Shown here piece after piece: positions 22,611 to 59,529 of a stretch of 64,000 bases of DNA. Location: positions 60,062 to 124,061 of the forward strand of contig CAZIKB010000003.1 of NCBI GenBank assembly GCA_964539665.1. Reading direction: 5' to 3'. The DNA is from an uncultured Cytophagia bacterium. GTDB taxonomy: Bacteria; Zhuqueibacterota; Zhuqueibacteria; Oceanimicrobiales; Oceanimicrobiaceae. Position 1 is the first letter of the stretch; each line of letters opens with the position of its first letter. Position numbers and translations under genes: made by a program. The notes below the pieces were generated by a model. That model saw only the letters and a list, made by a program, of their open reading frames with translations, was not told the origin of the DNA and did not search any database.

Positions 22611-22611
22611 T

Positions 22612-25600: not shown

Positions 25601-25806
25601 ATAATAAAATTGATTTGGTAATTAATATTCCAAAAAATTATCAGGAAGAAGAACTGACTAACGATTATATCATTCGTCGCCATGCAGTAGATTATGGCAT
25701 TCCATTGATTACTAATTTGCAGCTTGCCAGACGATTCGTTGAGGCTATGTCAAGAAAAGCGCCATCTGAATTACAAATCAAAAGTTGGGGGGATTACGAG
25801 TTATGA
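22612..25806 (+). CDS. carB: carbamoyl-phosphate synthase large subunit
   Basis: 1064 aa with duplicated ATP-grasp halves (GSSALKIGEAGEFDYSGSQA; GSGVYRIGSSVEFDWC) and an MGS-like C-terminal domain. Confidence 0.95.
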   Translation: MENLPKKVIVLGSSALKIGEAGEFDYSGSQAIKALKETGIQTVLVNPNIATIQTSEHLADQVYFLPVNAYFTEKIIEKEKPDGILLAFGGQTALNCGLELSKNGVFEKHNLRILGSPLKAIQETEDRGLFVKRLREIEVDVPRSVAVNSTEEALATARKIGYPVMIRIAFALGGLGSGICVSENEIRELADKAFSFTNQILIEEYLQGWKEVEYEVVRDVYNNCITVCNMENFDPLGIHTGESIVVAPSQTLNNHEYHRLREISIRVVRHIGIVGECNVQFALNPLTGDYQVIEVNARLSRSSALASKATGYPLAFIAAKLALGFGLTDLKNSITQTTMACFEPALDYVVVKIPRWDLKKFHRVSTRIGSGMKSVGEVMAIGRSFEEALQKALRMLDIGVSGLTGNDHLEFEDVKTELTHPTDERIFAIVSAFKAGISIEEVHKLTNIDNWFLYKIQHILQVEKLLNGYKSGICPRGTLLEAKRAGFSDCQIAKNLDCHDDDVRRMRKNYGIKPCVKQIDTLAAEYPAQTNYLYLTYNGESDDIDFQITNSVIVLGSGVYRIGSSVEFDWCCVNAVMTLRELGYKTILINYNPETVSTDYDECDRLYFDELSFETIFDIYEKEKPHGVIISMGGQIPNNLAMKFHQAGMNVLGTTSQNIDNAEDRHKFSTLLDTLKIDQPEWNELVSTEEAKAFAKKVNYPVLVRPSYVLSGAAMGVASTDVELTKLLERAAEISSEFPVVISKFLENAKEIEFDGVAQKGELIVYAISEHVENAGVHSGDATLVLPPQRTYIETIRQVRSISRKIAQALQITGPFNMQFIAKNNDVKVIECNLRASRSFPFVSKVVKVNFIDIATRVLLGEIVPKSDKSFMELEYVGVKAPHFSFTRLQGADPTLGVEMASTGEVGCLGDDFEEAFLKALISVGFKLPVRSILISTGPLENKAEFISSAKILMDLGVRIYSTKGTSEFMKQYGIDTDILYWPLEKKSPNVLEYLSNNKIDLVINIPKNYQEEELTNDYIIRRHAVDYGIPLITNLQLARRFVEAMSRKAPSELQIKSWGDYEL

Positions 25807-27620
25807 ACATATTAGGTATATCTTGTTTTTATCATGACAGCGCCGCCTGTTTAGTGCAGGATGGTGAAATTGTTGCCGCAGCACAGGAAGAAAGGTTTAC
25901 CCGTAAAAAGCATGATCAGGAGTTTCCCCAAAATGCCATTAATTTTTGTCTGGATTATGCAAAAATCGATGTCAAGGATTTAGATTTTGTAGCTTTCTAT
26001 GATAAACCTTTCTTGAAATTCGAGCGAATATTAGAGACCTATCTTGCCTTTACTCCAAAAGGAATTACGTCATTTTTAATGGCCATCCAATTATGGATTA
26101 AGCGAAAGCTCTGGATCCCTGACTTAATTCGCAAAGAACTTGGGTATGATGGGAAAATAATTTATCCGGAACATCATGAATCACATGCTGCGTCGGCATT
26201 TTTCCCCTCTCCATATCAAGAGGCTGCGTTTATAACCATGGACGGCGTCGGCGAATGGACCACCACATCTTACGGTGTTGGCAAAGACAATAAAGTAAGT
26301 ATTCTTGCTGATTTACAATTCCCGCATTCATTAGGATTGTTGTATTCGGCATTCACATACTTTACTGGATTTAGGGTCAATTCAGGGGAATATAAAGTAA
26401 TGGGTTTGGCTCCCTATGGAGAACCAAAGTATGTCCAGGCTATTCGGGACAATTTAATCGATATTAAAGAAGACGGTTCCTATAAAATGAACATGGAATA
26501 TTTCGATTACTGTTCCGGATTAAAGATGACAAATGGCAAGTTTGATAAAATATTTGGCGGACCGCCAAGAAAGCGAGAGTCGAAACTGGCGCAGCGAGAG
26601 ATGGACCTGGCGCGTTCGGTGCAGGAAATTACTGAAGAAATTATGCTTAAAACTGCGCGTCATGTTCATGACGAAACCGGGCAGAAGTATTTGTGCCTGG
26701 CTGGCGGGGTGGCCCTCAATTGTGTTGGCAACGGAAGAATTCTACGAGAAGGTCCATTTGAGGATATCTGGATTCAGCCCGCCGCTGGAGACGCCGGGGG
26801 GGCTCTGGGAGCTGCACTGTTTACCTGGCACCAATATTTAGACAATAATCGACAAAGCAATGGCAGAGATGAGTTACAAAAAGGATCGTATTTAGGCCCT
26901 GAATATAGCGATAATGACATCCAAAGCTTTTTAGACGAACATAAAATACCCTATCAAAAAATAAACTCTGAAGAGTTACCCACAATAATCGCTGATGTAA
27001 TTATTAATGAAAAAGTTGTCGGCTGGTTTCAAGGCAGGATGGAGTTTGGTCCGAGAGCGCTCGGCAGCCGTTCAATTATTGGCGATGCACGTTCGTCTGA
27101 GATGCAAAAAGTTATGAATCTTAAAATCAAATTCAGAGAAAGTTTCAGGCCATTTGCTCCATCGGTTTTAGAAGAGCGGGTGTCCGATTATTTTGAGATT
27201 GACAGAGCAAGCCCATATATGCTTTTGGTTGCGCCTGTAAATAAAAATATACGGCGCAACATGACCGAAGAAGAACAAAATTTATTTGGCATTGATAAAC
27301 TTAATATAGCCCGTTCAGAAATACCGGCCATTACGCACGTTGATTATTCGGCGCGAATTCAGACTGTTGATTGTCGTACCAATCCACTTTATCATAAACT
27401 GATTTCAGCAGTGGAGTCTAAAACTGGATGTCCTGTTATCATCAATACCTCTTTTAATGTGCGTGGCGAACCCATCGTGTGTACACCTTTAGACGCCTAT
27501 AAATGTTTTATGCGCACAGAAATGGATTATCTTTGTATGGGTAATTTTCTTTTGGATAAAAAACAACAGCCAGAGTTTCATGATGATATTAACTGGCAAG
27601 AAAAATATGAGTTAGATTAA
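25803..27620 (+). CDS. carbamoyltransferase (NodU/CmcH family), copy 1
   Basis: [18 protein letters not shown]...[13 protein letters not shown]...[10 protein letters not shown]...[13 protein letters not shown]...[12 protein letters not shown]. Its ATG overlaps the carB TGA (ATGA). Confidence 0.9.
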   Translation: [605 protein letters not shown]

Positions 27621-27621
27621 T

Positions 27622-28059
27622 ATGAATTTAATCGATGACATAAAGTTTGAAATAACAAAGTTAAAAGAAGATAAGAGCACCTTAAGAAAATTTGCAATTA
27701 CCATAGCATCCGCACTTTGCATTATAGGTGCTTTAGTATTCTTTCTTGGAAGCAGGGCAGAGACCGCATTCTGGTTATGGGGATTTGGATCATCCATTTT
27801 AATATTAGGTATCACGGTTCCCAATGTCTTAAAGCCATTTCACCTATTGTGGATGACATTGGCCTTTGTTTTAGGTTGGTTTGTATCACGCTTAATTCTA
27901 AGCATAGTTTTTTATTTAGTGATGACACCCATCGGATTAGTAATGAAAATCATCGGAAAAGATCTGATAAATCAAAAGCTTGAAAAGAATAATTTATCTT
28001 ACTGGATAAAACGTGACCCGGTAAATAGGAATCCTGAAAGTTATGAAAAATTATTCTAA
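27622..28059 (+). CDS. SxtJ-family small membrane protein
   Basis: Two or three TM helices and the C-terminal pattern LVMTPIGLVMKIIGKDLINQK...SYWIKRD, as in SxtJ-like proteins that follow carbamoyltransferases. Confidence 0.65.
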   Translation: MNLIDDIKFEITKLKEDKSTLRKFAITIASALCIIGALVFFLGSRAETAFWLWGFGSSILILGITVPNVLKPFHLLWMTLAFVLGWFVSRLILSIVFYLVMTPIGLVMKIIGKDLINQKLEKNNLSYWIKRDPVNRNPESYEKLF

Positions 28060-33946: not shown

Positions 33947-35746
33947 ATGAAGGAGTACAGTATGGCAATTCTCTCTTTTAGTAATGAGCATGAAGCTGGT
34001 GCGGCAATTATCAGGCATGGTAAAATTGTTGCCGCGATTAATGAGGAACGACTTACCCGGGTAAAAAATCAAGATGGATTCCCAAATCTATCAATTGCTT
34101 ACGTACTTCAGAAATCTAACTTGCGACCAAATGATATTAATCATGTTATTATACCTGAAATTAGTAAAATACGCGATATTTTTACGAATGTTCTTGTGCA
34201 ATATCCACTAAATGTATTCTATAAATCACCTGGAATGCAGTGCAGTTTTACAGATTATCTACGTCAATTACTATTATCAGGTTATATTTTAGTTAGAACC
34301 TATGCGCGAGTTCTACTTGACCATCGAAGAGATGAAAAACTGCTGCGAAAGATGTTCCCGAGGGCTGAATTTCACCGATTGAACCATCATCTATCTCATG
34401 CCGCTTCAACTTTTTTCACCAGTGGTTTTGAAAAAGCAATGATTATTACAGCCGATTATTGGGGAGACTTTACAACAACTATGGTTTCAATTGGCGAAGG
34501 TAAGAAAATTCGTCCTGTGGAACAAAGCTATTATCCGCATTCGTTAGGACATTACTACGCCAGTTTAACTAATTGGCTTGGCTTTCGTCCGAACCGGCAT
34601 GAAGGTAAAATCCTTGGTCTGGCAGCAATGGGCGATCCTGAATCTCCGGTTTATGATATGATCAAGGATTTATTGATTTGTGATGGACTTAAAATAAAAG
34701 CGCCCTTCATGATTGGTAAAATGTGGCATAAAAATGTTCGATGGTTCAAGAACTGTTTAATGCGCCAAATGGTTGATAATTATTCACGTGAAGATATATC
34801 TGCTGCATTCCAGCGCAGGTTTGAGGAAGTATTTGTTGAATTGGTTAAAAATGCGGTGAAGCAGTTTGGTCTGAAAAATATAGCATTAGCTGGTGGTGCG
34901 TTTGCAAATGTTAAGCTTAACCAAAATATTTTAGAAGTTGACGGAATAGAAAATATTTATATTTATCCGAACATGAGCGATGGCGGTATTTCTCAAGGCG
35001 CAGCATTATACTATGATATTCAATCAAATGGCAGTATGCCGTCGTTACTGACTAATGTTTATTTCGGTCCAAGTTATACCGACGATCAAATCGAGGCGGA
35101 GCTCAAGGAAAGGAATATAAAATATCACAGACATGAAAACATCGAAAAAGAAATAGCTAAATTAATTGCTGAAAGCAATGTGGTGGCACGATTCGCCGGG
35201 GCTATGGAACTCGGTCCACGAGCATTAGGCAATCGTTCCATTCTATACTCCGCGACGGATCCGAAAGTTAATAAATGGCTCAATGCCCGATTGAAGCGAA
35301 CTGAATTTATGCCATTTGCACCCGTGACCCTCGAAGAATATGCTGATAAATGCTACAAAAATTTCAATGGCGCTAAAATAGCATCCAAGTTTATGGTGAT
35401 TACCTTTGACTGCACCGATTTTATGAAAGAAAAATCTCCGGCAACAGTTCATGTGGATGGCACAGCAAGACCGCAAGTTATAAATGAAAAAGACAATCCT
35501 AGCTATTATAATATTCTAAAAGAGTATCATAAACTTACCGGCATTCCAACCCTGGTGAATACCAGTTTTAATATGCACGAAGAACCGATAGTATGTACTC
35601 CTCAGGATGCAATTCGCTCATTTTTACAGGGTACTCTGGATTACCTGGCAATTGGAAATTTCTTAGTGAAAAATAAGGATAAGGAATCACCTGAGAAAGG
35701 ACATGTTGATGAATTAAAGGAAGTCCCTTTCAAAGAATTAGTCTGA
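33947..35746 (+). CDS. carbamoyltransferase (NodU/CmcH family), copy 2 (start may be ATG 33962)
   Basis: MAILSFSNEHEAGAAII...AAINEERLTRVKNQDGFP...HHLSHAASTFF...MELGPRALGNRSI...NTSFNMHEEPIV. Confidence 0.9.
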   Translation: MKEYSMAILSFSNEHEAGAAIIRHGKIVAAINEERLTRVKNQDGFPNLSIAYVLQKSNLRPNDINHVIIPEISKIRDIFTNVLVQYPLNVFYKSPGMQCSFTDYLRQLLLSGYILVRTYARVLLDHRRDEKLLRKMFPRAEFHRLNHHLSHAASTFFTSGFEKAMIITADYWGDFTTTMVSIGEGKKIRPVEQSYYPHSLGHYYASLTNWLGFRPNRHEGKILGLAAMGDPESPVYDMIKDLLICDGLKIKAPFMIGKMWHKNVRWFKNCLMRQMVDNYSREDISAAFQRRFEEVFVELVKNAVKQFGLKNIALAGGAFANVKLNQNILEVDGIENIYIYPNMSDGGISQGAALYYDIQSNGSMPSLLTNVYFGPSYTDDQIEAELKERNIKYHRHENIEKEIAKLIAESNVVARFAGAMELGPRALGNRSILYSATDPKVNKWLNARLKRTEFMPFAPVTLEEYADKCYKNFNGAKIASKFMVITFDCTDFMKEKSPATVHVDGTARPQVINEKDNPSYYNILKEYHKLTGIPTLVNTSFNMHEEPIVCTPQDAIRSFLQGTLDYLAIGNFLVKNKDKESPEKGHVDELKEVPFKELV

Positions 35747-37248: not shown

Positions 37249-38628
37249 ATGTCTTTTAAAAAACCAAATATAATTTTAATTATGATAGATTGCGGGCGGG
37301 CTGATCATTTTTCTATTTATAATGATAGTAAAAATACGACTCCAAATTTAAAAAAAATAGCTGCGGAAAGCATGGTTTACAATAATGCTATCTCACCTGC
37401 CGGTTGGACCTTGCCAACCCATTCATCAATATTTACTGGTGTTTATCCCTCGCAACACGGCGCCCACAATGAAAATCATCAACTCTCAAATGAATACCCA
37501 ACGCTTGCAGAATTGCTTGTTGAACAAGGGTACAAGACTTTTGGAATCTGTACTATAGATTGGCTAAGTCAGGCTACCGGAGTAATTAGAGGATTCCAGG
37601 AATTTGATAACTTACATTTTAGTAAGTCAAAATTAATATTGAAAAGAATGTTACAATACCCCATAATTGGCGGGAAGGACTGCTGGGGATATGAAACCAA
37701 CAGAAAAGCGAAAAAATGGCTAAAACAAAATGATTCAGGCAATCCATTTTTTATGTATCTCCATTATAATGAATTGCATCTGCCTTACAACATACCTGAA
37801 AAAATATTGAAGAATTTTTTACCGGAAGATGTGACGGTTGCTAAGGCATTAAAAATTAATCAAGATGCCAAAAAATATTATGCCGGTATTGCAAAAATGA
37901 GTGCAGAGGATTTTAAAATACATAAAGCATTGTATGACGCCGGATTGAAATACACTGACGATTTAATAGGGCAATTGATTGATTTCTTAAGAAAGCAAGA
38001 TATTCTTGATAACACAATTCTTGTCATCACAAGTGACCACGGTGAAAGCTTAGGCGAACACGGACATTTTGACCATTATTACGTCCTTTATGAATCCCTG
38101 CTCCATGTGCCTTTAATGGTTAGATATTTCCCTGTTTTTGGCTCGGGAAAGTCAGATGCGCTTGTGCAAACTATTGATCTATATCCAACTTTATTACAAT
38201 TAGCCGGTGTACCAATTGAAAAATATGAACATCACGCTGCGTTAACCCTTCCCCCGGTTGGAAAAAATAAAGGGCGAGAATATGCGTATGCTGAACGCTT
38301 TCAGGATTTAAAAGGTTTAAAGGAAAGCTTCAAAAATCATGATTTATCACATTTGGAAAAATATGAGCAGGAACGTCTGACTGTTATTAGAGGCGAGCGA
38401 TATAAGCTTATTTATTCTATGCAAGGTCGTCATGAATTGTTCGATTTACACAATGATCCCCGCGAAGAAGAAAATATATTATTAAAAGAACCGGGAATAG
38501 CAGAAATCATGATGGATAAACTAAAAGAGTGGCAATCATCATTTCCATTAAAACAAACAGAAGGAGAAGAAGCATATTTTGATAAAGAGGCTGTTGAACG
38601 TCTAAAAGCATTGGGATATCTTGGTTAA
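37249..38628 (+). CDS. sulfatase-fold (PF00884-type) hydrolase/transferase, Thr nucleophile, no TM or signal peptide; LGY tail
   Basis: IILIMIDCGRADHF, TSDHGESLGEHG and ELFDLHNDPREEENI are family motifs. The FGly site reads T-L-P-T-H-SSIFTG instead of C/S-x-P-x-R. Ends ...AVERLKALGYLG. Confidence 0.8.
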   Translation: MSFKKPNIILIMIDCGRADHFSIYNDSKNTTPNLKKIAAESMVYNNAISPAGWTLPTHSSIFTGVYPSQHGAHNENHQLSNEYPTLAELLVEQGYKTFGICTIDWLSQATGVIRGFQEFDNLHFSKSKLILKRMLQYPIIGGKDCWGYETNRKAKKWLKQNDSGNPFFMYLHYNELHLPYNIPEKILKNFLPEDVTVAKALKINQDAKKYYAGIAKMSAEDFKIHKALYDAGLKYTDDLIGQLIDFLRKQDILDNTILVITSDHGESLGEHGHFDHYYVLYESLLHVPLMVRYFPVFGSGKSDALVQTIDLYPTLLQLAGVPIEKYEHHAALTLPPVGKNKGREYAYAERFQDLKGLKESFKNHDLSHLEKYEQERLTVIRGERYKLIYSMQGRHELFDLHNDPREEENILLKEPGIAEIMMDKLKEWQSSFPLKQTEGEEAYFDKEAVERLKALGYLG

Positions 38629-43767: not shown

Positions 43768-45645
43768 TTGAATTCAAATTATTCCAAACAAAATAGCGTA
43801 ATTCATCAAATTAAGATTAGCTTTTTGGGGGGACTTTTGACCGGTATAATTATCGGTGGCTCTCTGGCAATTTATAACACCTGGTTTTTAAATTACTATA
43901 TTCAGAAAGGGCTAACTCATTTTGTCATTGAAATATTCAGTGAATATATCATTCAAGCCACTTTGGCTGCAACTTTGATCTTTTTATTTTTATTACCTTT
44001 TGTGGCTTTTTTTAGTCAAACCATTTCAGAAATTAGGGCCATTCGTCTGGCAAGATTCACATTAATGCTGGTCGGAATAATCTGGGTAATTGGCGGCTAT
44101 CAAATAAACAAATCTATCTGGTTCCCACCGATAGCTTCTGCGAAAGGCATTTTAGGAAACATGTTTTACAGTTTCATCTGTCTGGGATTGGCTTTTCTTT
44201 TATACAAAATAATGATGGCATTTCGTTTAAAACTGCCTTTGCCATTTGCTGGATTATTGCATAAATTATACAATGGCAAATTATTGAGTGCAATTGCGTC
44301 AATTTTTATTGTTGCGAATGGATGTACCATTTATCATCTCGCAAACCATAAACCTAATAGTCCCAATGTTGTAATTCTTTCGATTGATACGTTACGTGCT
44401 GATCATCTTGGTTGTTATGGTTATGAAAGGAATACGAGCCCAACTATTGATAAATTAGCCAGCGAGGGCGTTCAATTCTCTAATTGTTATGCTCAACGTG
44501 GTCTAACCTGGCCGTCACTAACATCAATAATGACTGCCATGTATCCGAAAACTCATGGAGTCAGACGCAATCAGGTTCCGCTTGACGGCAAAAATATTAC
44601 CATCGCCGAAATTCTTAAAAATGAAGGGTACAAGACCGGTGCATTTCTTGCAAATTATTATTTTTCACCAAATCGTGGTTTCGACACCAAAATGGGTGGT
44701 GAAATTGGCGATCTGGATTATGCCATCACGGGGCAAGCTTTAGGTTGGCTGAATGGGATTAATCCTCAGGAAGACAATTTTTTCTTGTGGATTCACTATA
44801 AAAATCCTCATTTACCTTATGAACCGCCTGAACCGTTTACAAATATGTTTGACTCAACTTATACCGGCCAGTACGATGGTTCAAGGAAGTCAGTCAATTC
44901 GATTTATGTGAATAAAACAGAACTCGAAGAAAGAGATCTTGACCACATTGTTGCACTTTATGATGCTGAGATAAGATCTACAGACAGCTATATTGAACTT
45001 ATCCTGCAAAAGCTCAAAGCCATGAATGTGTATGATAATACAATTATTGTCTTCATCTCTGACCATGGTGAAGAGCTTTATGAGCGTAATTATTATTTTG
45101 ATCATGCTTGCTCAATCTACGATGGTGTTTTGCGAATTCCTTTGGTCATAAAATATTCGGATGTTATTCCGGCTGGGAAAATAATGGAAAATCAGATTGA
45201 AAGTATTGATATCACCCCAACCATCCTCAATATTTTAAAAGTTCCTTTACGTGATGAATTTGAAGGTCGCAGTATATTTGGAATGATATTAGATGATTCT
45301 TCTGATGTATGGTTTCCTTCTTTTGCTGACCGCTCAATTGTCATAAATTCCATTCGAACACCGCAGTGGAAATATATTTATAATCCGGAAGATTACCATG
45401 CAGTGTGTGTAACTGGCGCCGTAGAGGATGATGGAGAAGGTTATGATGTTGAAATTGAAGAACTTTATAATATACAAACCGATCCGTCTGAGCAAGTAAA
45501 TCTGGCTGAGCAATTTCCGAATATTGCTAAAGAATTACGCGCAGAGATCATAAACTGGCTCAATACCAACAAGAAAGTACATAAAGAATATACACTGTCC
45601 AAAGAAGCAGAAAAAAGACTGCGTGCCCTGGGATACGTCAAATGA
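43768..45645 (+). CDS. sulfatase-fold (PF00884-type) protein with 5-TM N-terminal domain (LtaS/EptA-like architecture), Thr nucleophile; LGY tail
   Basis: TTG start after AAAAGGAGA. Five hydrophobic helices in aa 17-189. VVILSIDTLRADHLG, ISDHGEELYE, ELYNIQTDPSEQVNL. The FGly site reads T-W-P-S-L-TSIMTA. Ends ...AEKRLRALGYVK. Confidence 0.8.
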   Translation: MNSNYSKQNSVIHQIKISFLGGLLTGIIIGGSLAIYNTWFLNYYIQKGLTHFVIEIFSEYIIQATLAATLIFLFLLPFVAFFSQTISEIRAIRLARFTLMLVGIIWVIGGYQINKSIWFPPIASAKGILGNMFYSFICLGLAFLLYKIMMAFRLKLPLPFAGLLHKLYNGKLLSAIASIFIVANGCTIYHLANHKPNSPNVVILSIDTLRADHLGCYGYERNTSPTIDKLASEGVQFSNCYAQRGLTWPSLTSIMTAMYPKTHGVRRNQVPLDGKNITIAEILKNEGYKTGAFLANYYFSPNRGFDTKMGGEIGDLDYAITGQALGWLNGINPQEDNFFLWIHYKNPHLPYEPPEPFTNMFDSTYTGQYDGSRKSVNSIYVNKTELEERDLDHIVALYDAEIRSTDSYIELILQKLKAMNVYDNTIIVFISDHGEELYERNYYFDHACSIYDGVLRIPLVIKYSDVIPAGKIMENQIESIDITPTILNILKVPLRDEFEGRSIFGMILDDSSDVWFPSFADRSIVINSIRTPQWKYIYNPEDYHAVCVTGAVEDDGEGYDVEIEELYNIQTDPSEQVNLAEQFPNIAKELRAEIINWLNTNKKVHKEYTLSKEAEKRLRALGYVK

Positions 45646-45854: not shown

Positions 45855-47513
45855 ATGAACAAAACAAATCATAGAGGAATTTTATTCTTTTTGAAGATAG
45901 GTATAATATCCGGTTTAATGTATGGCTTAATTTTAGGCTTGGTGAGATTATTAAGTCATGACGCTGTAAGAGCCTACTATTCAGCAAATTTTACAGATGT
46001 CCTGTTTTCATATACACAGGATTTTCTTAATCAAACCGTCATAATAACTTTGCTCGTATTTATTGTAATTGAAATGACTTTCTATTTTTTAAACAAATTA
46101 TTTGCAACCGCAGATAATAAGATAGTAAAATATTCAAGAATGATCGCGATTAATGGATTTTTCTTTTTATTAATTTTCTATTATTTAAATATTCAACACT
46201 GGTTTCCATCGATGTTGTCTAATAGCGCTTTATTGTACTACATAATTATTCTCGCGGGCAATGCTTTATTACTGTTATTATTCAATCGAATCAGAAACAA
46301 AATAGTTGTTCATGATTCTTTTAAATCCATTAAATTGCCAGTAATTACTGTTATCGTTTTATTATTGTTTAGCAATGTATTTAGTTATTTTCAAAAGAGT
46401 AAATTAAAAGCTGAAACACCGATAAATGTCATAATGATTGTGATTGATGCCCTGCGCGCCGGGCAGTTAGGTTGTTACGGATATGATCTGCCTACAACTC
46501 CGAACATCGATGCATTTGCTCAAGAAAGCCTTAGATTCACGAGCAGCTTTTCACCGAGCAACCATACTAAACCTTCCACAGCATCGCTTTTTACTTCGCT
46601 CTATCCTTCGCAACATAACGTTATTCTAGGAAATAGGTCAAATAATTCCGGGGAGTATTTCTCAGATGTTTTAGATGAATCATTCAAAACGATTGCAGAA
46701 TATTTGTATGAAGCAGATTATAACACGGCCGGGTTTCTAAACCAGGGTCAATTGCGTAAATATTTGGGATTTGCACAGGGATTTATCTATTATAATTCCC
46801 GGTTAGGAAGGGCGCCGCAAATTAATCGTGAATTTTTGCGTTGGCTGCCCATGAATAAACATAGAAAATTTTTTGCATACATACATTATTTGGATGTACA
46901 CGGCCCTTATGATCCGCCTGAGAAATATCGAAAAATATTTAATGTGAATGAGCTGACCAGCGAAATTCCGGAGCGTGCTAAAAATTGGCGAAAATTTAAA
47001 AAAGACTTTGAGAGCGGTGCTTTAGAATTTACGCCTGAGGACCTGGAAAATTTGAAAGCGCTTTACAATGCTGAACTTAAATCCGTTGATGATCAGCTTG
47101 GAATACTTTTTCAGGAATTGAAAAGGCAAGGAGTATATGAAAACAGTCTAATCATAATCACGGCTGACCACGGTGAGTCGTTTGTTGAACATGGCGAAAT
47201 AGATCATGGCTCCACTTTGTTCGATGAAGTTTTACGCGTACCTTTAATAATCCATTATCCTAACCAGGAAAAAACCGGCGTAGTAGATGCAAATGTGCAA
47301 ACTCTTGATTTACTGCCGACCATTTTAGATTATTTAAATATTACGCCTTCAAAAGACTTGATGGGACAAAGTATTTTAAAGTATTCAAATGGCAGCATTG
47401 AGCACGATGAATATCCTATTTTCTGTGAAAGAAATAATCTGGTCTCATTGATCTTTGGTAAAGATAAATATATTTTTGATAAAATAGCCAGACGGGGGAA
47501 CTCTATAACTTAG
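45855..47513 (+). CDS. sulfatase-fold paralog with multi-TM N-terminus, Thr nucleophile; reading frame broken near 47481 (see next feature)
   Basis: VIMIVIDALRAGQLG, TADHGESFVEHG, FGly site T-K-P-S-T-ASLFTS. The ORF ends ...KYIFDKIARRGNSIT*, while the homologous C-terminus continues in another frame. Confidence 0.75.
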   Translation: MNKTNHRGILFFLKIGIISGLMYGLILGLVRLLSHDAVRAYYSANFTDVLFSYTQDFLNQTVIITLLVFIVIEMTFYFLNKLFATADNKIVKYSRMIAINGFFFLLIFYYLNIQHWFPSMLSNSALLYYIIILAGNALLLLLFNRIRNKIVVHDSFKSIKLPVITVIVLLLFSNVFSYFQKSKLKAETPINVIMIVIDALRAGQLGCYGYDLPTTPNIDAFAQESLRFTSSFSPSNHTKPSTASLFTSLYPSQHNVILGNRSNNSGEYFSDVLDESFKTIAEYLYEADYNTAGFLNQGQLRKYLGFAQGFIYYNSRLGRAPQINREFLRWLPMNKHRKFFAYIHYLDVHGPYDPPEKYRKIFNVNELTSEIPERAKNWRKFKKDFESGALEFTPEDLENLKALYNAELKSVDDQLGILFQELKRQGVYENSLIIITADHGESFVEHGEIDHGSTLFDEVLRVPLIIHYPNQEKTGVVDANVQTLDLLPTILDYLNITPSKDLMGQSILKYSNGSIEHDEYPIFCERNNLVSLIFGKDKYIFDKIARRGNSIT

Positions 47514-47692
47514 AAATAGATCCGGGAGAGCGGAATAAAATTAATTCCCGGAATAGTGAATTAGAGCAGAAAATGAAAGCTATGGTTTTAGAATGGAGTG
47601 AGGCCATGAAACTCGTTAGTAAAAAGTCAGAAGGTACTAAATTAGATAAAGAAACCATCGAAAAACTTAAAAGTCTGGGATATATCAAATAA
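47483..47692 (+). other. displaced 3' segment of the 45855 sulfatase-fold gene (frame -1 relative to the upstream part)
   Basis: Translates NSQTGELYNLEIDPGERNKI...KETIEKLKSLGYIK*, matching the ELY(N/D)LxxDPxE box and LGY tail of the two paralogs. Junction is GATAAAATAGCC, an A4 run where A5 would restore the frame. Confidence 0.75.
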
Positions 47693-48290: not shown

Positions 48291-48590
48291 ATGTCGGAAC
48301 AGAACCGAAAAAGAGTAATTGGTAAGGCAATTACTTATAGAGGACTTGGCACATTAGTTACTATATCAGTAATATATATTTTCACTGGAAAATTGGCGCT
48401 TTCATTTGGTGTCGGACTTGTTGAGGTCGTTGCTAAAATGCTTTTTTATTACCTGCATGAACGACTTTGGGAGAAAATATCATGGGGTAAAGATAAACAT
48501 CCTCTTGCTGGAATCCCTGTTAAAAAGGAGCTTGAACCTGAAGACAAAGTATTGCTTGAAGAGAGATTAAAAGAGCTTGGATATTTATAA
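48291..48590 (+). CDS. DUF2061-family small membrane protein with C-terminal LGY tail
   Basis: KAITYRGLGTLVTISVIYIFTG...KMLFYYLHERLWEKISWG is the DUF2061 pattern, a family I recall as linked or fused to APS kinases. Ends ...LEERLKELGYL. RBS GAGGAAA. Confidence 0.7.
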   Translation: MSEQNRKRVIGKAITYRGLGTLVTISVIYIFTGKLALSFGVGLVEVVAKMLFYYLHERLWEKISWGKDKHPLAGIPVKKELEPEDKVLLEERLKELGYL

Positions 48591-52795: not shown

Positions 52796-52987
52796 ATGTT
52801 AGGTCCCAAAATTAAATTAGAAAAAGAATTATATGATCGAATTAAAAAATTTTCTGAAATCGCTGGTTATTCTTCTGTTGAAGAATTTGTAACTCATGTG
52901 CTGGAAAAAGAACTGTCGACAATAGATGACTCTGAATCAGAAGAAGAAGTGAAAAAACGATTACAGGGATTGGGATATTTGTCTTAA
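52796..52987 (+). CDS. 63-aa ribbon-helix-helix-like protein with acidic linker and LGY tail
   Basis: KIKLEKELYDRIKKFSEIAGYSSVEEFVTHVLEKEL has the strand-helix-helix pattern of CopG/NikR-type RHH domains. It is followed by DDSESEEEVKKRLQGLGYLS. Confidence 0.5.
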   Translation: MLGPKIKLEKELYDRIKKFSEIAGYSSVEEFVTHVLEKELSTIDDSESEEEVKKRLQGLGYLS

Positions 52988-53938: not shown

Positions 53939-54775
53939 ATGAGTTATAAATTTTTATCTACTAAAACAAGTCAGGAACATGATTTAGACCAGTGGCAAAA
54001 TCGTAGCCTCGAAGGTGAAATAAAAAGTTTTGAAGGCCGTACATTAGTTCGTATTTTTAATAAATATTTAAACGGAAAAGAAGCGAAAATCCTTGAAGGA
54101 GGTTGCGGATTTGGTGCTTGGTGTGAGTGGTTCCAAAAACAGGGTTATCAAATATTAGGTATTGAATACGATAATAATATAGTAAAAAGAGCCAAAAAAT
54201 ATAAGCCAGATGTAGCCGTTGAATTAGGCGATATCACCGAAATAAAGTACCCGTCCGATAGCTTTGACGCTTATGTATCATTGGGAGTGATTGAACATTT
54301 TGAACATGGTCCAGAGTCTGCCCTGAGAGAAGCCCATCGAATTCTTAAACCAGATGGCATAGCCTTTGTAACTACGCCTTATTTAACAGTAATCCGAAGG
54401 TTTGTTGCTCATCCGGTTCGCAGCTTGTATTTTTTAATTCGAGAGTTTCGTGGAAAATCAAATTATTTTTGGGAATATCGGTTTACAAAAAATGAATTAC
54501 GTTCTTTTCTTGAGAATACTGGCTTTGAAATTATACATGCGGATATCGACGATTATGAGCATAGGATTAAGAATCGCCACATAGGTCTGTGGGCGGATTG
54601 GTTTTTTTTAAGAAGAAAAAATGGTGCAATCTGGGAGTTAAATGGTTTAGGAAAATTTGTGCTCAGAGTTGTCAATCTTTTTCCTGATTCCTGGTACTGC
54701 TCGGGTTTGCATCTGGTTGCAAGGGCAAAAAAGAACGATATCACTGAAAATAGTGAAATTACTAAATCCAAATAA
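53939..54775 (+). CDS. class I SAM-dependent methyltransferase
   Basis: [15 protein letters not shown] (motif I), [22 protein letters not shown]. Confidence 0.8.
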
Positions 54776-54798: not shown

Positions 54799-57435
54799 AT
54801 GGAATTAATCGCACCTCACGGTGGCAAACTTGTTGATCAGGTTTTACGTGGCGAAGAACGTGAAGCAGCTTTGAACAAAGCTAAGCATCTAAAAAAAATT
54901 GCAATCAACGCAACAGCAATTTCTGATGTAGAACTCATTGCAGTTGGTGCATTCAGCCCATTAACGGGATTTATGAAACAGGCTGATTATGAAAATGTAG
55001 TTACGAATATACGTTTAGCAAATGGCGTGGTCTGGTCGATACCAATAACTTTGTCAGTTACCAGTGAAATTGCTGATGAAGTTAAAATTGACGAAGAAAT
55101 TGTATTAACCAATGATGCCGGATTGCAATTAGCATTATTAAAAGTTGAGGAAAAGTTTACTTACGATAAAACCCGGGAAGCGGAATTTGTATATAAAACA
55201 ACCGAAGAAGCCCATCCTGGCGTTGCCCGGCTTTACAAGCAGGATGATGTGTTATTAGGTGGTGAGATTAGGCTAATCAATCGGGTGCCGGATCAACCAT
55301 TTCCGGATTTTCGACACGATCCTGTTCAGAGTCGGCGTATGTTTGCCAGTCGCGGTTGGAAAAAAATTGTAGGATTTCAAACTCGCAATCCAATACATCG
55401 TGCGCATGAATACATACAGAAATGTGCATTGGAAATTGTCGATGGTTTATTTTTACATCCATTAGTTGGGGAGACTAAAAAGGATGATATTCCCGCGGAT
55501 ATTCGCATGCAAAGTTATGAGAGCCTGCTGCGAGATTATTATCCGCCAAACCGTACACTTTTAGGGGTATATCCGGCCGCCATGCGCTATGCCGGTCCAA
55601 GAGAGGCTATTTTTCATGCGATTGCGCGAAAGAATTATGGCTGCAGCCATTTTATAGTCGGTCGAGACCATGCCGGGGTTGGTAATTATTATGGAACGTA
55701 TGATGCTCAAAAAATATTCGATGATTTCAAAAAGGAAGAAATAGATATCACACCTTTATTTTTTGATCATACATTTTATTGCAAAAAATGCGGTGCTATT
55801 GTTTCTGACAAAACCTGTCCGCATGATCAATCTGAGCGTTTGATATTAAGTGGCACTCAGGTTCGTGAAATGCTCACTCGCGGGGAAGCGCCACCACCAG
55901 AATTAACCCGCCCGGAAGTGGCGAGTATACTGATCGAAGGTTATCGCAAAGAAGGCAAATCAGTTCAACCAGAAAAAAAACCGGAAGCCAAAAGAGCACC
56001 AGCTAAATCCGAACCAAAGGCAGCGGTTGCAAGGGCGTCTAAAAATGGCAAGCGGAAAGTATTTGTCATCGGCCTTGATTGTGCCACACCCGAATTGATT
56101 TTTGACCAGTACAAATCGGAGCTTCCAAACTTTCGGAAATTAATGGAAAGCGGTCTTTACGGAGAATTAGAAAGCAGCATTCCGCCAATTACCGTTCCAG
56201 CCTGGTCGTCCATGATGAGCAGTAAAGATCCGGGGCAGTTGGGCTTTTACGACTTTCGTAATCGTGCAGATTACTCCTATGAAAGCATGTATATTGCCTC
56301 ATCCAGGTCAGTAAAAACGGATCGGGTCTGGGATATTCTCTCTCGTTCAGGAAAACAGGTATCGGTTGTGGGAGTGCCTCAAACCTATCCTATCCAGCCC
56401 GTTAAAGGAAACATGATTTCTTGCTTTCTGACTCCTTCTACTGAAAGCCAGTACACCTATCCTGAAGAACTTAAATCTGAAATCCAGGAGTTGGTGGGAG
56501 ACTACATGATTGATGTGCCTAATTTTAGAACCGAGAACAAGGATTTGCTTTTGCGGCAAATTTATGAAATGACCGAAAAGCGTTTTCGGCTTGTTCGCTA
56601 TCTAATGCGGAAAAAACCGTGGGACTTTTTTATGTTTGTCGAAATGGGTACAGATCGCATTCATCACGGATTCTGGAAGTATATGGATACCGGCCATAAA
56701 AAATATGAACCCGGTAATCCTTATGAAAACTCAATAAAGGAATATTATAAATATCTGGATCGGGAAATCGGCGAGGTACTTGATAACCTTGACGACGATA
56801 CATCCGTTTTGGTGGTTTCAGACCATGGCGCCAAAAAAATGGATGGCGGTATATGCATTAATGAATGGCTCATTGAAAATGGCTATCTTATTTTAAAAGA
56901 GAAACCGGCTTCACTTATGCCACTGGAGAAAGCAGAAATAGACTGGCCCAAAACGAAAGCATGGGGCGCTGGCGGATATTTTGGCCGAATTTTTCTTAAT
57001 GTCCGCGGCCGCGAACCTGAAGGCGCGGTTGCACCTGAAGAGTATGAAACCATTCGGAATGAATTGATTCATAAGCTGGAAAATATAAAGGACGAAAAAG
57101 GCCAGCCATTAACTACCAGAGTTATAAAGCCAAATGAGGTTTATAAGGAAGTAAACAATATTCCTCCGGATTTAATGGTCTATTTTGGTGATTTGAATTG
57201 GCGGTCGGTTGGCAGTGTCGGATTAAATCGAATACACACTTTTGATAAAGAGCTGGGACCTGATGATGCTAACCATTCTCAGCACGGTATTTTTGTCATG
57301 CATGATCCACAAAATCCTGCAAATGGCAAGAGAATTCACGGCATGCAATTGGTTGATGTTGCGCCAACTATTTTAGATTTATTTGGTGACGAAATTCCAA
57401 ATGATATGATCGGTAAAGTTATCAGGAACAAATAA
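54799..57435 (+). CDS. sat: fusion protein: ATP sulfurylase (Sat) + Lys/Pro/Ala-rich linker + COG3379-like alkaline-phosphatase-superfamily domain
   Basis: aa 1-~385: [15 protein letters not shown] (HxxH), [30 protein letters not shown]. Linker [37 protein letters not shown]. aa ~421-878: [28 protein letters not shown]. Confidence 0.85.
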
Positions 57436-57461
57436 GGCGTTAGAGGAAACACGCTGAGGAT

Positions 57462-57494
57462 ATTTGCCACACACTTCCAGGGTGTGTGGCAAAT
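57462..57494 (+). terminator. perfect 13-bp stem hairpin between sat-fusion and cysC (attenuator or mRNA-stabilising element; weak U tract)
   Basis: ATTTGCCACACAC-ttccagg-GTGTGTGGCAAAT followed by CCAATTTTAAATT. Confidence 0.45.
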
Positions 57495-57559
57495 CCAATT
57501 TTAAATTAAAATCAATTAATTAGTTGTAATGATATAAATTTTATGGAGGTTTCAATTTT

Positions 57560-58183
57560 ATGAAGACATCTAAAAAAGCATGTACAATTTGGTTCACGGG
57601 TTTACCTTCCTCTGGAAAATCTACTTTGGCGGAGATGCTGGAAAAGGAGTTAAAAAACCGCGGAGAAAGGGTCGAAATTTTAGATGGCGATGTAGTCCGT
57701 ACGAATTTAAGCAAAGGCTTGACCTTTAGTAAGGAAGATCGGGACATCAATATCCGGAGAATAGGATTTGTTTGTCATTTGTTGACAAGAAATGGTGTGT
57801 TCGCAATTTCTGCAGCAATATCTCCTTATAGAAATATACGAGATGAAAACCGTGCACTCATAGGCAACTTTGTCGAGGTTTTTGTTGATTGTCCACTGGA
57901 TGAATGTATTAAAAGAGATGTAAAAGGTCTTTATAAAAAAGCATTGGCCGGCGAAATAAAGGAATTTACCGGCGTTTCTGATCCTTATGAAGAACCTCTC
58001 AAACCTGAAATTGTGATTGACGCCCACGGAGAAGAACCCAAAGATAGCCTTCAAAAAATACTGGCGAGATTAGTAGAATTAGGTTACTTATCCAATAACG
58101 GTCTTGATACATCTGACAAAGCATATTCTGATGAAGAAGAAGAGGTAGTGAGAAAGCGGCTGAGTGATCTGGGCTATATTTAA
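57560..58183 (+). CDS. cysC: adenylyl-sulfate (APS) kinase with a 30-aa C-terminal extension ending in an LGY tail
   Basis: P-loop [42 protein letters not shown]. The core ends ...[12 protein letters not shown], then [37 protein letters not shown]. Confidence 0.9.
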
Positions 58184-59529
58184 TGTTAAATATTTTTAAG
58201 AAAAATAAGGGATCAAAAGTATTTGTTCTGTCTATCGACGGTGTTCCCTTTTCATTTATGCAGGAAAACATAGAAAAGGGTCATTTTCCTAACTTCAAAC
58301 GTTTTTTGAATATGGGTGATTTTAAAAGGATGAATTCAGTGCAACCGGTGATATCATCGGTTGCCTGGTCCTCTTTTATGACAGGCAAGAATCCGGCTAA
58401 GCATAATATTTATGGATTTGTGGATCAAATGCCGGGTTCAAATAATGTATATATTCCTACTTCGCTCAACATGACCAGTAAAACCATTTGGGATATCATG
58501 AGTGAGGCTGGGAAAAAAGTGTTTGTGATGAATGTTCCTGTAACCTATCCACCACGCGCGGTAAATGGAATTATGATTGGCTGTTTCCTTTGCACTCAAA
58601 TTGAGAAAATAGCTTCCCCGCCTGCTATTTCTGCTGAATTAAAAAATATGGGCTATAAGATTGATGCAGACGCCTGGATCGCCCGTGAAAATTTAGACAA
58701 ATTCCTGGAGGAAGTAAATACTACCCTGGAAAAGCGAACCGAGGCTATGTTTCATTTTTTGGCAAAGGAAGATTGGGATTATTTTCACACCCACATCATG
58801 GAAACAGACCGGATAAATCACTTTTTATGGGAGCACATGGAACTCGATGAGCCGAAATATGCTAAAGCTTTTTTCCAATTTTATAAAAGGTTGGATGATA
58901 TTTTAGGTGAAGTTGAACAAAAAATCGGCGAAGACGCGGAATTTATAGTTCTGTCTGATCACGGTTTTTGTACTATTAAGAAAGAAATCTATCTCAATAA
59001 TTATTTGGAAGAAGCCGGTATATTGAAATTTAATAACTCTCAGCCGGAAAGTATCGCGGACATGCATGAAGATTCCACGGCCTACAGCTTGATTCCAGGC
59101 AGGGTATTTGTGAATCTAAATGGGCGCGAGCCGAACGGTTCGATATCGCCGGGGAATTATGAAAAGACCCGGGAAAAACTCACTGAGACGCTTCTTAATT
59201 TAAAGGAAAAAGACACCGGCGAATTTATTATCAAGGAAGTTATCAGGCGCGAAAATATCTACGAAGGTCAAAATATTGGCTCCGCAGCGGACTTAATTGC
59301 TGTTCCACATGATGGTTATGACTTGAAAGGGAACGTGAATAAAGAAGTGTTTGGTGAAAAGGGGGCGCTGGTCGGAATGCATACATTCGAAGATTCACTT
59401 TTATTTGTTCGAAATAAATCTTTGTTAAAACAGAATAATCAATTTTGGATCGGAGATTTGGCTCCAACTATTTTAAATATGATGAATATACCCATCCCAA
59501 ACGATATGGATGGAGTGGCATTAGTTTGA
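58183..59529 (+). CDS. alkaline-phosphatase-superfamily protein (COG3379-like), short cytoplasmic form
   Basis: VFVLSIDGVPF, SSVAWSSFMTG, LSDHGF. TAATG overlap with cysC. No TM segment. Confidence 0.75.
   Translation: MLNIFKKNKGSKVFVLSIDGVPFSFMQENIEKGHFPNFKRFLNMGDFKRMNSVQPVISSVAWSSFMTGKNPAKHNIYGFVDQMPGSNNVYIPTSLNMTSKTIWDIMSEAGKKVFVMNVPVTYPPRAVNGIMIGCFLCTQIEKIASPPAISAELKNMGYKIDADAWIARENLDKFLEEVNTTLEKRTEAMFHFLAKEDWDYFHTHIMETDRINHFLWEHMELDEPKYAKAFFQFYKRLDDILGEVEQKIGEDAEFIVLSDHGFCTIKKEIYLNNYLEEAGILKFNNSQPESIADMHEDSTAYSLIPGRVFVNLNGREPNGSISPGNYEKTREKLTETLLNLKEKDTGEFIIKEVIRRENIYEGQNIGSAADLIAVPHDGYDLKGNVNKEVFGEKGALVGMHTFEDSLLFVRNKSLLKQNNQFWIGDLAPTILNMMNIPIPNDMDGVALV

Follow-up and report, generated by a model that had tools for sequence, protein, structure and literature searches.

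In textbook accounts of sulfate activation, ATP sulfurylase (Sat, or CysDN), adenosine 5′-phosphosulfate (APS) kinase (CysC), a general pyrophosphatase and a phosphatase for 3′-phosphoadenosine 5′-phosphate (pAp) are thought to be enough. In stramenopiles and haptophytes, ATP sulfurylase (ATPS) is documented as a fusion with a canonical soluble inorganic pyrophosphatase (PPase), and this arrangement has been explained by the removal of pyrophosphate (PPi), whose destruction pulls an unfavourable equilibrium forward (PMC2275785). The bifunctional Sat/APS kinase of Aquifex (2gks) likewise joins consecutive sulfate-activation enzymes. Here we describe a gene from an uncultured Cytophagia bacterium, within a 64,000-nucleotide stretch of contig CAZIKB010000003.1 (assembly GCA_964539665.1; the whole 64-kb stretch is called the window), that encodes Sat fused to an alkaline phosphatase (AlkP)-superfamily domain, which we call AlkP-A. 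As in the eukaryotic fusions, Sat would share one polypeptide with a product-removing enzyme, and the proposed logic is identical. However, the partner is an unrelated AlkP domain of the NPP clade whose PPase activity is predicted, the host is a bacterium, and the gene is part of a glycan locus. Against 2gks, Sat and CysC of the window give E values of 1e-82 and 6e-52, but unlike in the Aquifex enzyme, CysC is encoded by a separate gene, with a C-terminal tail, and the fused partner of Sat is a hydrolase-type domain rather than a kinase.

The fusion gene starts with ATG, is preceded by GAAAGGA, which resembles a ribosome-binding site (RBS), and runs through 878 uninterrupted codons (Table 1). 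Pfam matched PUA_2 (PF14306) at aa 4-162 (E 1e-56) and ATP-sulfurylase (PF01747) at aa 170-380 (E 1e-97), while NCBIfam scored the protein at 584 bits for NF003166, sulfate adenylyltransferase (cut-off 387), and at 457 bits for TIGR00339 (cut-off 323). These matches, together with the HRAH (aa 200-203) and GRDHAG (aa 288-293) motifs, bear out an earlier interpretation made from the DNA letters alone (the sequence-only reading), which had described a single 878-aa open reading frame (ORF) with a complete Sat. The top solved relative of this half is the ATPS of M. thermolithotrophicus (Methanothermococcus; 8a8d, E 2e-113). Homology thus marks the N-terminal part of the protein as an ordinary ATP sulfurylase, predicted to convert ATP and sulfate to APS and PPi. 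The low-complexity linker rich in Lys, Pro and Ala that had been described from the letters was also found, as 37 residues at aa 384-420. In homologues, the linker is ~12-40 aa long and varies in both length and sequence, as a flexible interdomain linker should.

Could the join be an assembly or sequencing artefact that merged two separate genes? Window positions 56560-58357 are 100% identical in three independent assemblies, but all three end short of the linker and leave it uncovered, and exact look-up on contigs returned no record of the window protein or of P0122. Moreover, some database entries annotate the AlkP part alone, such as P0128 (479 aa), named Chloroflexi bacterium B3_Chlor. However, the B3_Chlor locus itself (L008) has Sat and AlkP in one stop-free ORF. 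A search for the architecture and its taxonomic spread, which the sequence-only reading had proposed, found the Sat-linker-AlkP order in all of the best 120 database clusters (60-78% identity, ~99% coverage) and continuous in over 120 clusters drawn from four sources of data (NCBI, JGI, ENA and Logan assemblies). We also scanned one genome per species and took the best 80 of at least 586 stretches encoding a relative (genome loci, given L numbers). These 80 loci span about a dozen phyla, and in 13 of them Sat and AlkP form a single stop-free ORF. The matching genomes are metagenome-assembled and belong chiefly to Ktedonobacteraceae, Chthoniobacterales and Caldilineaceae. The closest relative, L098, is syntenic with the window and also fused, with 76% identity across the fusion, and the linker is in frame and of a typical flexible type. 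We conclude that the fusion is real and recurrent; an artefact is effectively excluded. Since fused and unfused forms are interleaved at identities of at least 70%, gain or loss of the fusion has occurred more than once, and the two forms should share one job.

Public annotation of this architecture says merely "sulfate adenylyltransferase" or "alkaline phosphatase family protein". In the literature that could be searched, we found no biochemical or other study of the Sat-AlkP architecture or of AlkP-A function, in agreement with the earlier impression that the architecture is uncharacterised. Papers on Vibrio sulfated capsules and on Antarctic "dark matter" phyla have canonical sulfotransferases or sulfatases as their subject.

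AlkP-A (aa 421-878) matches Pfam Phosphodiest (PF01663) over aa 421-810 with E 3e-48, above the gathering threshold, and has an NPP-like fold by fold comparison. The Thr of TVPAWSS (aa 465-471) had been proposed as the nucleophile. In a profile alignment, this residue, T465 (in ITVPAW), aligned with the formylglycine Cys of an arylsulfatase, the superfamily's nucleophile position, and all orthologues share the metal ligands of NPP type, D427, D619/H623, D675/H676 and H826. In domain numbering, none of D13, T51, D205, H209, D261, H262 and H412 varies among 33 orthologues. By these residues, AlkP-A keeps both the two-metal ligand set and the Thr nucleophile intact. The residue that follows the nucleophile is Val; the equivalent NPP position is presumably a base-stacking Phe. 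Directly after the nucleophile helix, the sequence of an F-R-N-R-A-D-Y loop (AlkP-A residues 73-85, window 56257-56295) is invariant. Model confidence in this loop is low (pLDDT 45-69), and it may be a mobile active-site lid.

When AlkP-A was compared with the PDB, by single sequence and by profile, none of the solved structures matched it significantly in sequence. The nearest folds are NPP, ENPP4/6/7 and PhnA, and from these proteins (NPP of Xanthomonas, 7mw8; ENPP4, ENPP6, ENPP7; PhnA) AlkP-A differs in having 14-16% identity, ~120 additional residues (one helical and one beta-rich insert), the FRNR loop and a cytoplasmic rather than secreted placement. Extracytoplasmic location is an NPP trait, but AlkP-A lacks a signal peptide and is joined to Sat, a cytoplasmic enzyme, and its relatives are also fused to CysC and to pyruvate kinase (PK). 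The JGI label of orthologues, "predicted AlkP superfamily phosphohydrolase/phosphomutase", agrees, by name only, with a COG3379-like assignment. The fusion protein had no Pfam or NCBIfam match to inorganic pyrophosphatases (family I, family II/DHH or membrane H+-PPase) or to pAp phosphatase families (CysQ/FIG, DHH, PHP), and no Pfam match to sulfotransferases dependent on 3′-phosphoadenosine 5′-phosphosulfate (PAPS; Sulfotransfer_1/2/3 and similar); its fold is of the AlkP type. To call AlkP-A a candidate PPase is to say that it would work like one, not that it belongs to a canonical pyrophosphatase family. We rejected AlkP-A as a sulfatase or pseudo-sulfatase: its match to PF00884 was marginal (26.7 bits versus a cut-off of 25), and the formylglycine motif C/S-x-P-x-R is absent, the position reading T-V-P-A-W.

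The gene order around AlkP-A ties it to sulfate activation. In the window, cysC lies immediately downstream of the fusion gene and is predicted to encode an APS kinase that makes PAPS and ADP from APS and ATP, so the product of the module would be PAPS, not APS alone. Stand-alone AlkP-A orthologues are ~460 aa long, 57-75% identical and present in at least a dozen phyla, among them KSB1, Calditrichota, Chloroflexota (many classes), Verrucomicrobiota, Acidobacteriota and Nitrospinota; others occur in Nitrospirota, Methylomirabilota, Thermodesulfobacteriota, Brocadiaceae and further taxa. In 61 of the 80 loci, sat (55 loci) and/or cysC (50 loci) lay on the same strand within 5 kb of AlkP-A, with orders that included Sat-A-CysC, A-CysC-Sat (Ktedonobacteraceae) and a bifunctional Sat/CysC followed by A (Verrucomicrobiota); bifunctional Sat/CysC proteins are present in L045, L058, L073, L075 and L078. 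Within the same loci, AlkP-A showed conservation similar to that of Sat (56-72%) and CysC (50-67%), while AlkP-B, a paralog found downstream of cysC in 11 of 80 loci, was less conserved (39-66%). Glycan genes occurred in the wider context of many loci. In Anaerolineae L008-L016, the recurrent identified neighbours were instead a response-regulator cyclase, flavin reductase and pyridoxal 5′-phosphate (PLP) enzymes, not glycosyltransferases or AlkP paralogs. Because linkage to sat and cysC holds across these differing contexts, the gene order points to AlkP-A as a conserved, acceptor-independent third partner of a bacterial sulfate-activation module.

Three further associations were seen in these loci. 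The fusion-bearing Anaerolineae (L007-L016) carry a gene for a response regulator joined to an adenylate/guanylate cyclase directly 3′ of cysC. A GHMP kinase of the heptose type and a SIS-domain isomerase accompany Sat, CysC and AlkP-A in two distant phyla, in Ktedonobacteraceae (L027, L029, L030, L032, L034, L044, L050 and L068) and in Verrucomicrobiota (L071-L084). In Ktedonobacteraceae, a myo-inositol-1-phosphate-synthase-like gene also lies upstream.

Fusions of the wider family are also informative. A search of 1.8 billion representatives returned 15,274 related clusters, of which 3,803 reached E ≤ 1e-30 (wider-family clusters were made at 50% identity). APS kinase is itself joined to AlkP-A, with the FRNR loop retained, in P0255 (CysC-AlkP-A). 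Other proteins contain PK, as AlkP-PK (P0327, P0396, P0399), AlkP-PK-Sat (P0307, P0394) or PK-Sat (P0395; L097 9974-12205), and the 1680-aa P0397 (locus L099, 10001-15043) reads AlkP-PK-Sat-CysC-PHP. A nucleotidyltransferase of the sugar-phosphate type precedes AlkP in P0299 and P0401, whereas AlkP is followed by an HD domain in P0402 and by a GT2 glycosyltransferase in P0279 (45% identical). In P0407, an L-type paralog is joined to a CysD-like domain, which represents the non-homologous ATP sulfurylase subunit type (top PDB match 1zun_A, "sulfate adenylyltransferase subunit 2", E 2e-24). Pyruvate kinase appears to be undescribed as a fusion partner of ATP sulfurylase. A metagenome scan with P0307 recovered chiefly unfused relatives from low-GC organisms.

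The sequence-only reading had argued that the fused domain acts on a product of Sat, either as a pyrophosphatase substitute or as an APS-using sulfuryl transferase. Linkage of sat, AlkP-A and cysC and the additional fusions strongly support the general claim, and the PPase option fits best. The sulfuryl transferase fits less well because AlkP-A is conserved like Sat and CysC, occurs in loci whose identified recurrent neighbours are not glycan genes and, in L006, shares an operon with canonical sulfotransferases. The earlier account had also passed over the downstream cysC, the possibility of a pAp phosphatase, three AlkP paralogs, three sulfatase-like proteins of the Thr type and the common unfused orthologues. 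Our preferred interpretation, to which we assign a probability of roughly 0.45, is that AlkP-A is the PPi-hydrolysing member of a PAPS-making module and a non-homologous counterpart of the eukaryotic ATPS-pyrophosphatase fusions.

Several lines of evidence favour a Sat-coupled PPase. The activities of a PAPS cycle are Sat, APS kinase, PPi removal, pAp removal and, helpfully, regeneration of ATP from ADP. Since four of these have recognisable domains in P0397, PPi removal is the step left for its AlkP domain. Sat, CysD-type enzymes and nucleotidyltransferases all release PPi, and as PPi release is all that these three unrelated fusion partners share, they too favour a PPase. Conservation about equal to that of Sat and CysC would be expected of an enzyme with a small universal substrate more than of one with a lineage-specific acceptor. 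Two-metal NPP-type Thr sites are good at phosphoryl transfer, and the E. coli and tissue-nonspecific alkaline phosphatases and PafA (5too) hydrolyse PPi, although these enzymes are extracytoplasmic phosphate scavengers of broad specificity and AlkP-A is cytoplasmic. PPi removal was rate-limiting in a coupled ATPS/APS kinase assay (PMC10322725), and an in vitro PAPS-generating mix contained both a PPase and pyruvate kinase (PMC9885120).

A mechanism that accommodates these observations is that AlkP-A works as a cytoplasmic, two-metal phosphohydrolase with a Thr nucleophile. Pyrophosphate released by Sat would be hydrolysed through a phospho-Thr465 intermediate, and AlkP-A and APS kinase together would pull the very unfavourable sulfurylase equilibrium forward. 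Fusion would be only one means of holding Sat and AlkP-A together; other lineages have a separate neighbouring gene, in some cases with a putative docking tail at the C terminus, or larger fusions that bring in pyruvate kinase (to regenerate ATP), APS kinase and a pAp phosphatase of the PHP type. What we infer in this scheme is the substrate itself, the transfer of function from a subfamily that is 38-42% identical, and the need for a dedicated PPase.

Other observations weigh against a PPase. The activity is predicted from sequence and context, most bacteria already have a housekeeping PPase, and the nearest folds (NPP, ENPP4/6/7 and PhnA) belong to diesterases or phosphonatases, not pyrophosphatases. 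The fusions to PK and nucleotidyltransferase and the five-domain protein belong to a subfamily ~38-42% identical to AlkP-A in which the FRNR loop is absent, and the CysD-like domain is joined to an L-type paralog, so transfer of function to AlkP-A is indirect. The GT2 glycosyltransferase fusion (P0279) suits a glycan-modifying enzyme better, and the activity missing from P0397 could equally be the consumer of PAPS, i.e. a sulfotransferase. Finally, as the window and its closest relatives have sat and cysC and no canonical sulfotransferase, some AlkP-type protein may be a sulfotransferase.

AlkP-A could itself be that enzyme, with Thr465 attacking the sulfuryl group of APS or PAPS to form a sulfo-enzyme that passes sulfate to a glycan, a lipid-linked intermediate or a carrier. 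We regard this as rather unlikely. In its favour, the window has dedicated sat and cysC genes along with seven AlkP-superfamily proteins whose nucleophile is Thr or Ser, yet none of its ORFs of at least 150 aa matched a canonical sulfotransferase family, and such families were likewise not found in L001, L002, L098 and L099, which have dedicated sat/cysC. (The consumer of PAPS may be encoded outside the 64-kb window, as the source contig is 130 kb long.) Sulfotransferase families were not within the top 25 families in a Pfam census of 250 neighbouring ORFs from ~50 loci, and an iterated hidden Markov model (HMM) search from two sulfotransferase seeds, an insensitive search, gave matches in just 3 loci. 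Fusions to GT2 and to enzymes that make NMP-X donors (Sat, nucleotidyltransferase) fit group transfer, and the pAp phosphatase domain of P0397 implies that pAp is made nearby. However, an acceptor-specific transferase would not usually show 57-75% identity across phyla, a level as high as that of Sat and CysC; AlkP-A is present in L008-L016, where the identified recurrent neighbours are not glycan genes; and in L006 it shares one operon with two canonical sulfotransferase genes, Sulfotransfer_1 and Sulfotransfer_3. Two-metal AlkP/NPP sites are also poor at sulfuryl transfer, by many orders of magnitude relative to phosphoryl transfer.

The variable paralogs in the window (AlkP-B, L1, L2 and the sulfatase-like proteins) are better candidates for acceptor-specific enzymes than AlkP-A. 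In a broader proposal, which we also consider improbable, COG3379-type and Thr-type sulfatase-like AlkP proteins near sat/cysC would be a new class of APS- or PAPS-dependent sulfotransferase with a sulfo-Thr or sulfo-Ser intermediate, held by their C-terminal tails on a Sat/AlkP-A/CysC core as a membrane-associated polysaccharide sulfation complex. Its members could include AlkP-A but would more likely be AlkP-B, L1, L2 and the three tail-bearing sulfatase-like proteins. The covalent-Thr transferases LtaS, EptA/MCR-1 and BcsG, which are extracytoplasmic, use membrane phospholipid donors and belong to the sulfatase-like branch, are closer analogues of these three proteins than of AlkP-A.

We also weighed AlkP-A as a pAp phosphatase, a non-homologous replacement for CysQ that clears the toxic by-product of PAPS-using enzymes. 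Such enzymes are notoriously replaced by unrelated ones (CysQ, DHH, PHP), an NPP-like fold suits nucleotides, and cysC accompanies AlkP-A in 50 of 80 loci. Motif scans of the loci for PAPS reductase (ECGLH), CysQ-type and DHH-type phosphatases gave no credible matches, although these are weak negatives. There is also a precedent: in M. thermolithotrophicus, an unannotated phosphoesterase encoded beside ATPS/APS kinase proved to be a pAp phosphatase (MtPAPP, DHH family; PMC10322725), and MtPAPP, the PHP/COG0613 type (2yb1) and CysQ all resemble AlkP-A as phosphoesterases of an unexpected family encoded with sat and cysC. In contrast to those cases, however, AlkP-A co-occurs with PHP-type homologues, both in the same operons, where separate genes for PHP-domain proteins come after Sat-A in 6 loci, and within one polypeptide (P0397). 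The PHP protein of L054 had as its top match PDB 2yb1 (E 2e-38), which we take to be the 3′,5′-bisphosphonucleotide (pAp) phosphatase Cv1693; another match, 7ug9, is labelled 5′-3′ exoribonuclease. L001 also has, at its edge, a gene of the CysQ family (Inositol_P). Since PHP-type pAp phosphatase homologues accompany it, AlkP-A probably has another activity. As a pAp role would also leave the fusions to Sat, the CysD-like domain and nucleotidyltransferase unexplained, we judge it very unlikely.

A shared C-terminal tail suggests how the module may be held together. The window's CysC carries a 29-aa extension (aa 179-207) with a tail motif at 58121-58180, whereas solved APS kinases stop at residue ~178. 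The consensus is Y-S/T-E-E-E-E-x-V/I-h-E-x-R-L-x-A-L-G-Y-L, which resembles a duplicate of the APS kinase's own last helix and matches no Pfam family. Five other window proteins end in this tail: the three sulfatase-like proteins, a DUF2061 protein and a 63-aa protein (37249-38628, 43768-45645, 47483-47692, 48291-48590 and 52796-52987; the tail at 47483-47692 is counted only after correction of a frameshift). This makes 6 of 977 window ORFs of at least 30 aa, versus ~0.1 expected by a rough estimate. Elsewhere, the tail was found on 34 of 53 CysC proteins, on ~10% of stand-alone AlkP-A proteins, on Verrucomicrobiota AlkP paralogs of 575 aa, on sulfatase-like proteins and on CysC-AlkP and AlkP-PK fusions, in many loci (e.g. 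L001, L006-L016 and L071-L084). It is absent from 120 of 120 Sat-AlkP-A fusions among the database matches listed and from bifunctional Sat/CysC proteins; in L023, the fused protein carries the tail and its CysC does not. The simplest reading makes the tail a docking helix by which client enzymes are tethered to a Sat-centred core, with gene fusion as the permanent form of the tether. Its presence on CysC and on AlkP and sulfatase-like neighbours suggests a tethered multi-enzyme complex. In low-GC metagenome contigs (L091 1283-2875 and L096), a tail-coding segment lies in frame with the preceding sulfatase-like gene, after a stop codon; these organisms may have reassigned that codon.

A tail shared by CysC, sulfatase-like, AlkP-like, DUF2061 and ribbon-helix-helix (RHH)-like proteins implies a common binding partner, and AlkP-A might be that structural hub. 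Alternatively, it might be an NPP-type nucleotide pyrophosphatase that trims surplus APS or PAPS, acting as a safety valve, or an adenylyl or phosphoryl transferase, as the nearest folds are nucleotide pyrophosphatases/phosphodiesterases and orthologues share many invariant Arg, Lys, His and Trp residues outside the metal site. We consider this group of roles quite improbable. Destruction of APS or PAPS next to the enzymes that make them would be wasteful, and the invariant catalytic residues make a purely structural function unlikely. In an AF2 model of a tail-bearing orthologue, the tail formed a 13-residue helix after a disordered linker, with pLDDT of only ~75, and docking on AlkP-A was not evident.

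The window as a whole is a single same-strand polysaccharide locus, with many GT2 and GT4 glycosyltransferases, two flippases, a Wzy-like polymerase, carbamoyl-phosphate synthase, two carbamoyltransferases, methyltransferases, epimerases and GH39. Given this setting, the PAPS that the module makes presumably serves glycan sulfation. In the immediate operon, the gene order is methyltransferase, Sat-AlkP-A, cysC, AlkP-B, GT4. The spacer between the fusion gene and cysC is 124 nt long and contains a 12-bp inverted repeat (57463-57493) that could be an attenuator or an element of mRNA processing or stability. The start of AlkP-B, which is 32% identical to AlkP-A, overlaps the stop of cysC. Orthologous pairs of the membrane-anchored paralogs L1 and L2 lie close to AlkP-A in L079, L082 and L098.

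At the formylglycine-motif position, the three sulfatase-like proteins read T-L-P-T-H, T-W-P-S-L and T-K-P-S-T. As Thr stands at the first position of C/S-x-P-x-R, we class them as Thr-type and not as true sulfatases. Of the window ORFs that were scanned with Pfam, none had a match to a radical-SAM or sulfatase-maturase family, and the three are probably transferases or hydrolases of other specificity. The gene at 45855-47692 looks frameshifted at a run of five G (47495-47499), with a Sulfatase_C-like segment and the tail motif in the downstream frame; the shift is either genuine or an error of sequencing. A homologue of the DUF2061 protein sits between sat and AlkP-A in L040. The 63-aa protein looks ribbon-helix-helix-like by eye (its sole family match, to DUF7557, was weak at E 0.004), and L098 has a 61-aa gene in the equivalent position. 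Carbamoylation genes at 21552-28059 and 33947-35746 encode the small and large subunits of carbamoyl-phosphate synthase and two O-carbamoyltransferase-type proteins, with a small SxtJ-like membrane protein (27622-28059) among them; their location in a glycan locus suggests a carbamoylated polysaccharide.

Table 1. Coordinates of the fusion gene, its parts and neighbouring features (window numbering)
Feature	Position	Strand	Basis or remark
Sat-AlkP-A fusion gene, 878 aa	54799..57435	+	continuous ORF, domain matches
Sat-type ATP sulfurylase, PUA_2 (aa 4-162) and catalytic domain (aa 170-380)	54808..55938	+	Pfam/NCBIfam
HRAH, aa 200-203	55396-55407	+	direct sequence reading
GRDHAG, aa 288-293	55660-55677	+	direct sequence reading
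Lys/Pro/Ala-rich interdomain linker, 37 aa, aa 384-420	55948..56058	+	direct sequence reading
AlkP-A domain, aa 421-878, NPP-clade alkaline-phosphatase-superfamily	56059..57432	+	Pfam and fold comparison
Predicted nucleophile T465 in TVPAWSS, aa 465-471	56191-56211	+	direct sequence reading
FRNR loop	56254-56265	+	family-specific
DRIHH, predicted metal ligands	56653-56667	+	
SDHG, predicted metal ligands	56818-56829	+	
DDANH, predicted metal ligands	57262-57276	+	
Perfect 12-bp inverted repeat TTTGCCACACAC...GTGTGTGGCAAA, 7-nt loop	57463..57493	+	direct sequence reading
cysC, APS kinase, 207 aa, 29-aa C-terminal extension with tail motif	57560..58183	+	PF01583, E 1e-61
AlkP-B, stand-alone paralog, 448 aa, Ser at nucleophile position	58183..59529	+	PF01663, E 1.5e-43
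S-adenosylmethionine (SAM)-dependent methyltransferase, 23 nt upstream of fusion gene	53939..54775	+	same place in L001, L098
63-aa small protein, own RBS, tail motif at end	52796..52987	+	
AlkP paralog L2, membrane-anchored, 664 aa	50788-52782	+	PF01663
AlkP paralog L1, membrane-anchored, 727 aa	48612-50795	+	PF01663
DUF2061 membrane protein, 99 aa, tail motif at end	48291..48590	+	
Second membrane-anchored sulfatase-like protein (PF00884), Thr at nucleophile position, tail motif	45855-47513, other frame to 47692	+	
Membrane-anchored sulfatase-like protein, Thr at nucleophile position, tail motif	43768-45645	+	PF00884
Soluble sulfatase-like protein, Thr (WTLPTH), C-terminal tail motif	37249..38628	+	PF00884

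Together, gene order and repeated independent fusions tie a fifth, uncharacterised protein family to sulfate activation. If AlkP-A or its paralogs were sulfotransferases, they would form a new enzyme class, one that would explain how many environmental bacteria without recognisable sulfotransferases make sulfated exopolymers. On the interpretation that we prefer, a Sat-coupled PPase, the novelty would be Sat fused to a product-removing enzyme of a non-homologous type, the bacterial equivalent of the eukaryotic ATPS-PPase fusions. A dedicated PPase would suggest that these mostly uncultured lineages are unable to rely on bulk PPi hydrolysis, and the AlkP-PK-Sat-CysC-PHP protein would then be a ready-made, single-chain PAPS generator, of potential interest in enzymatic sulfation.

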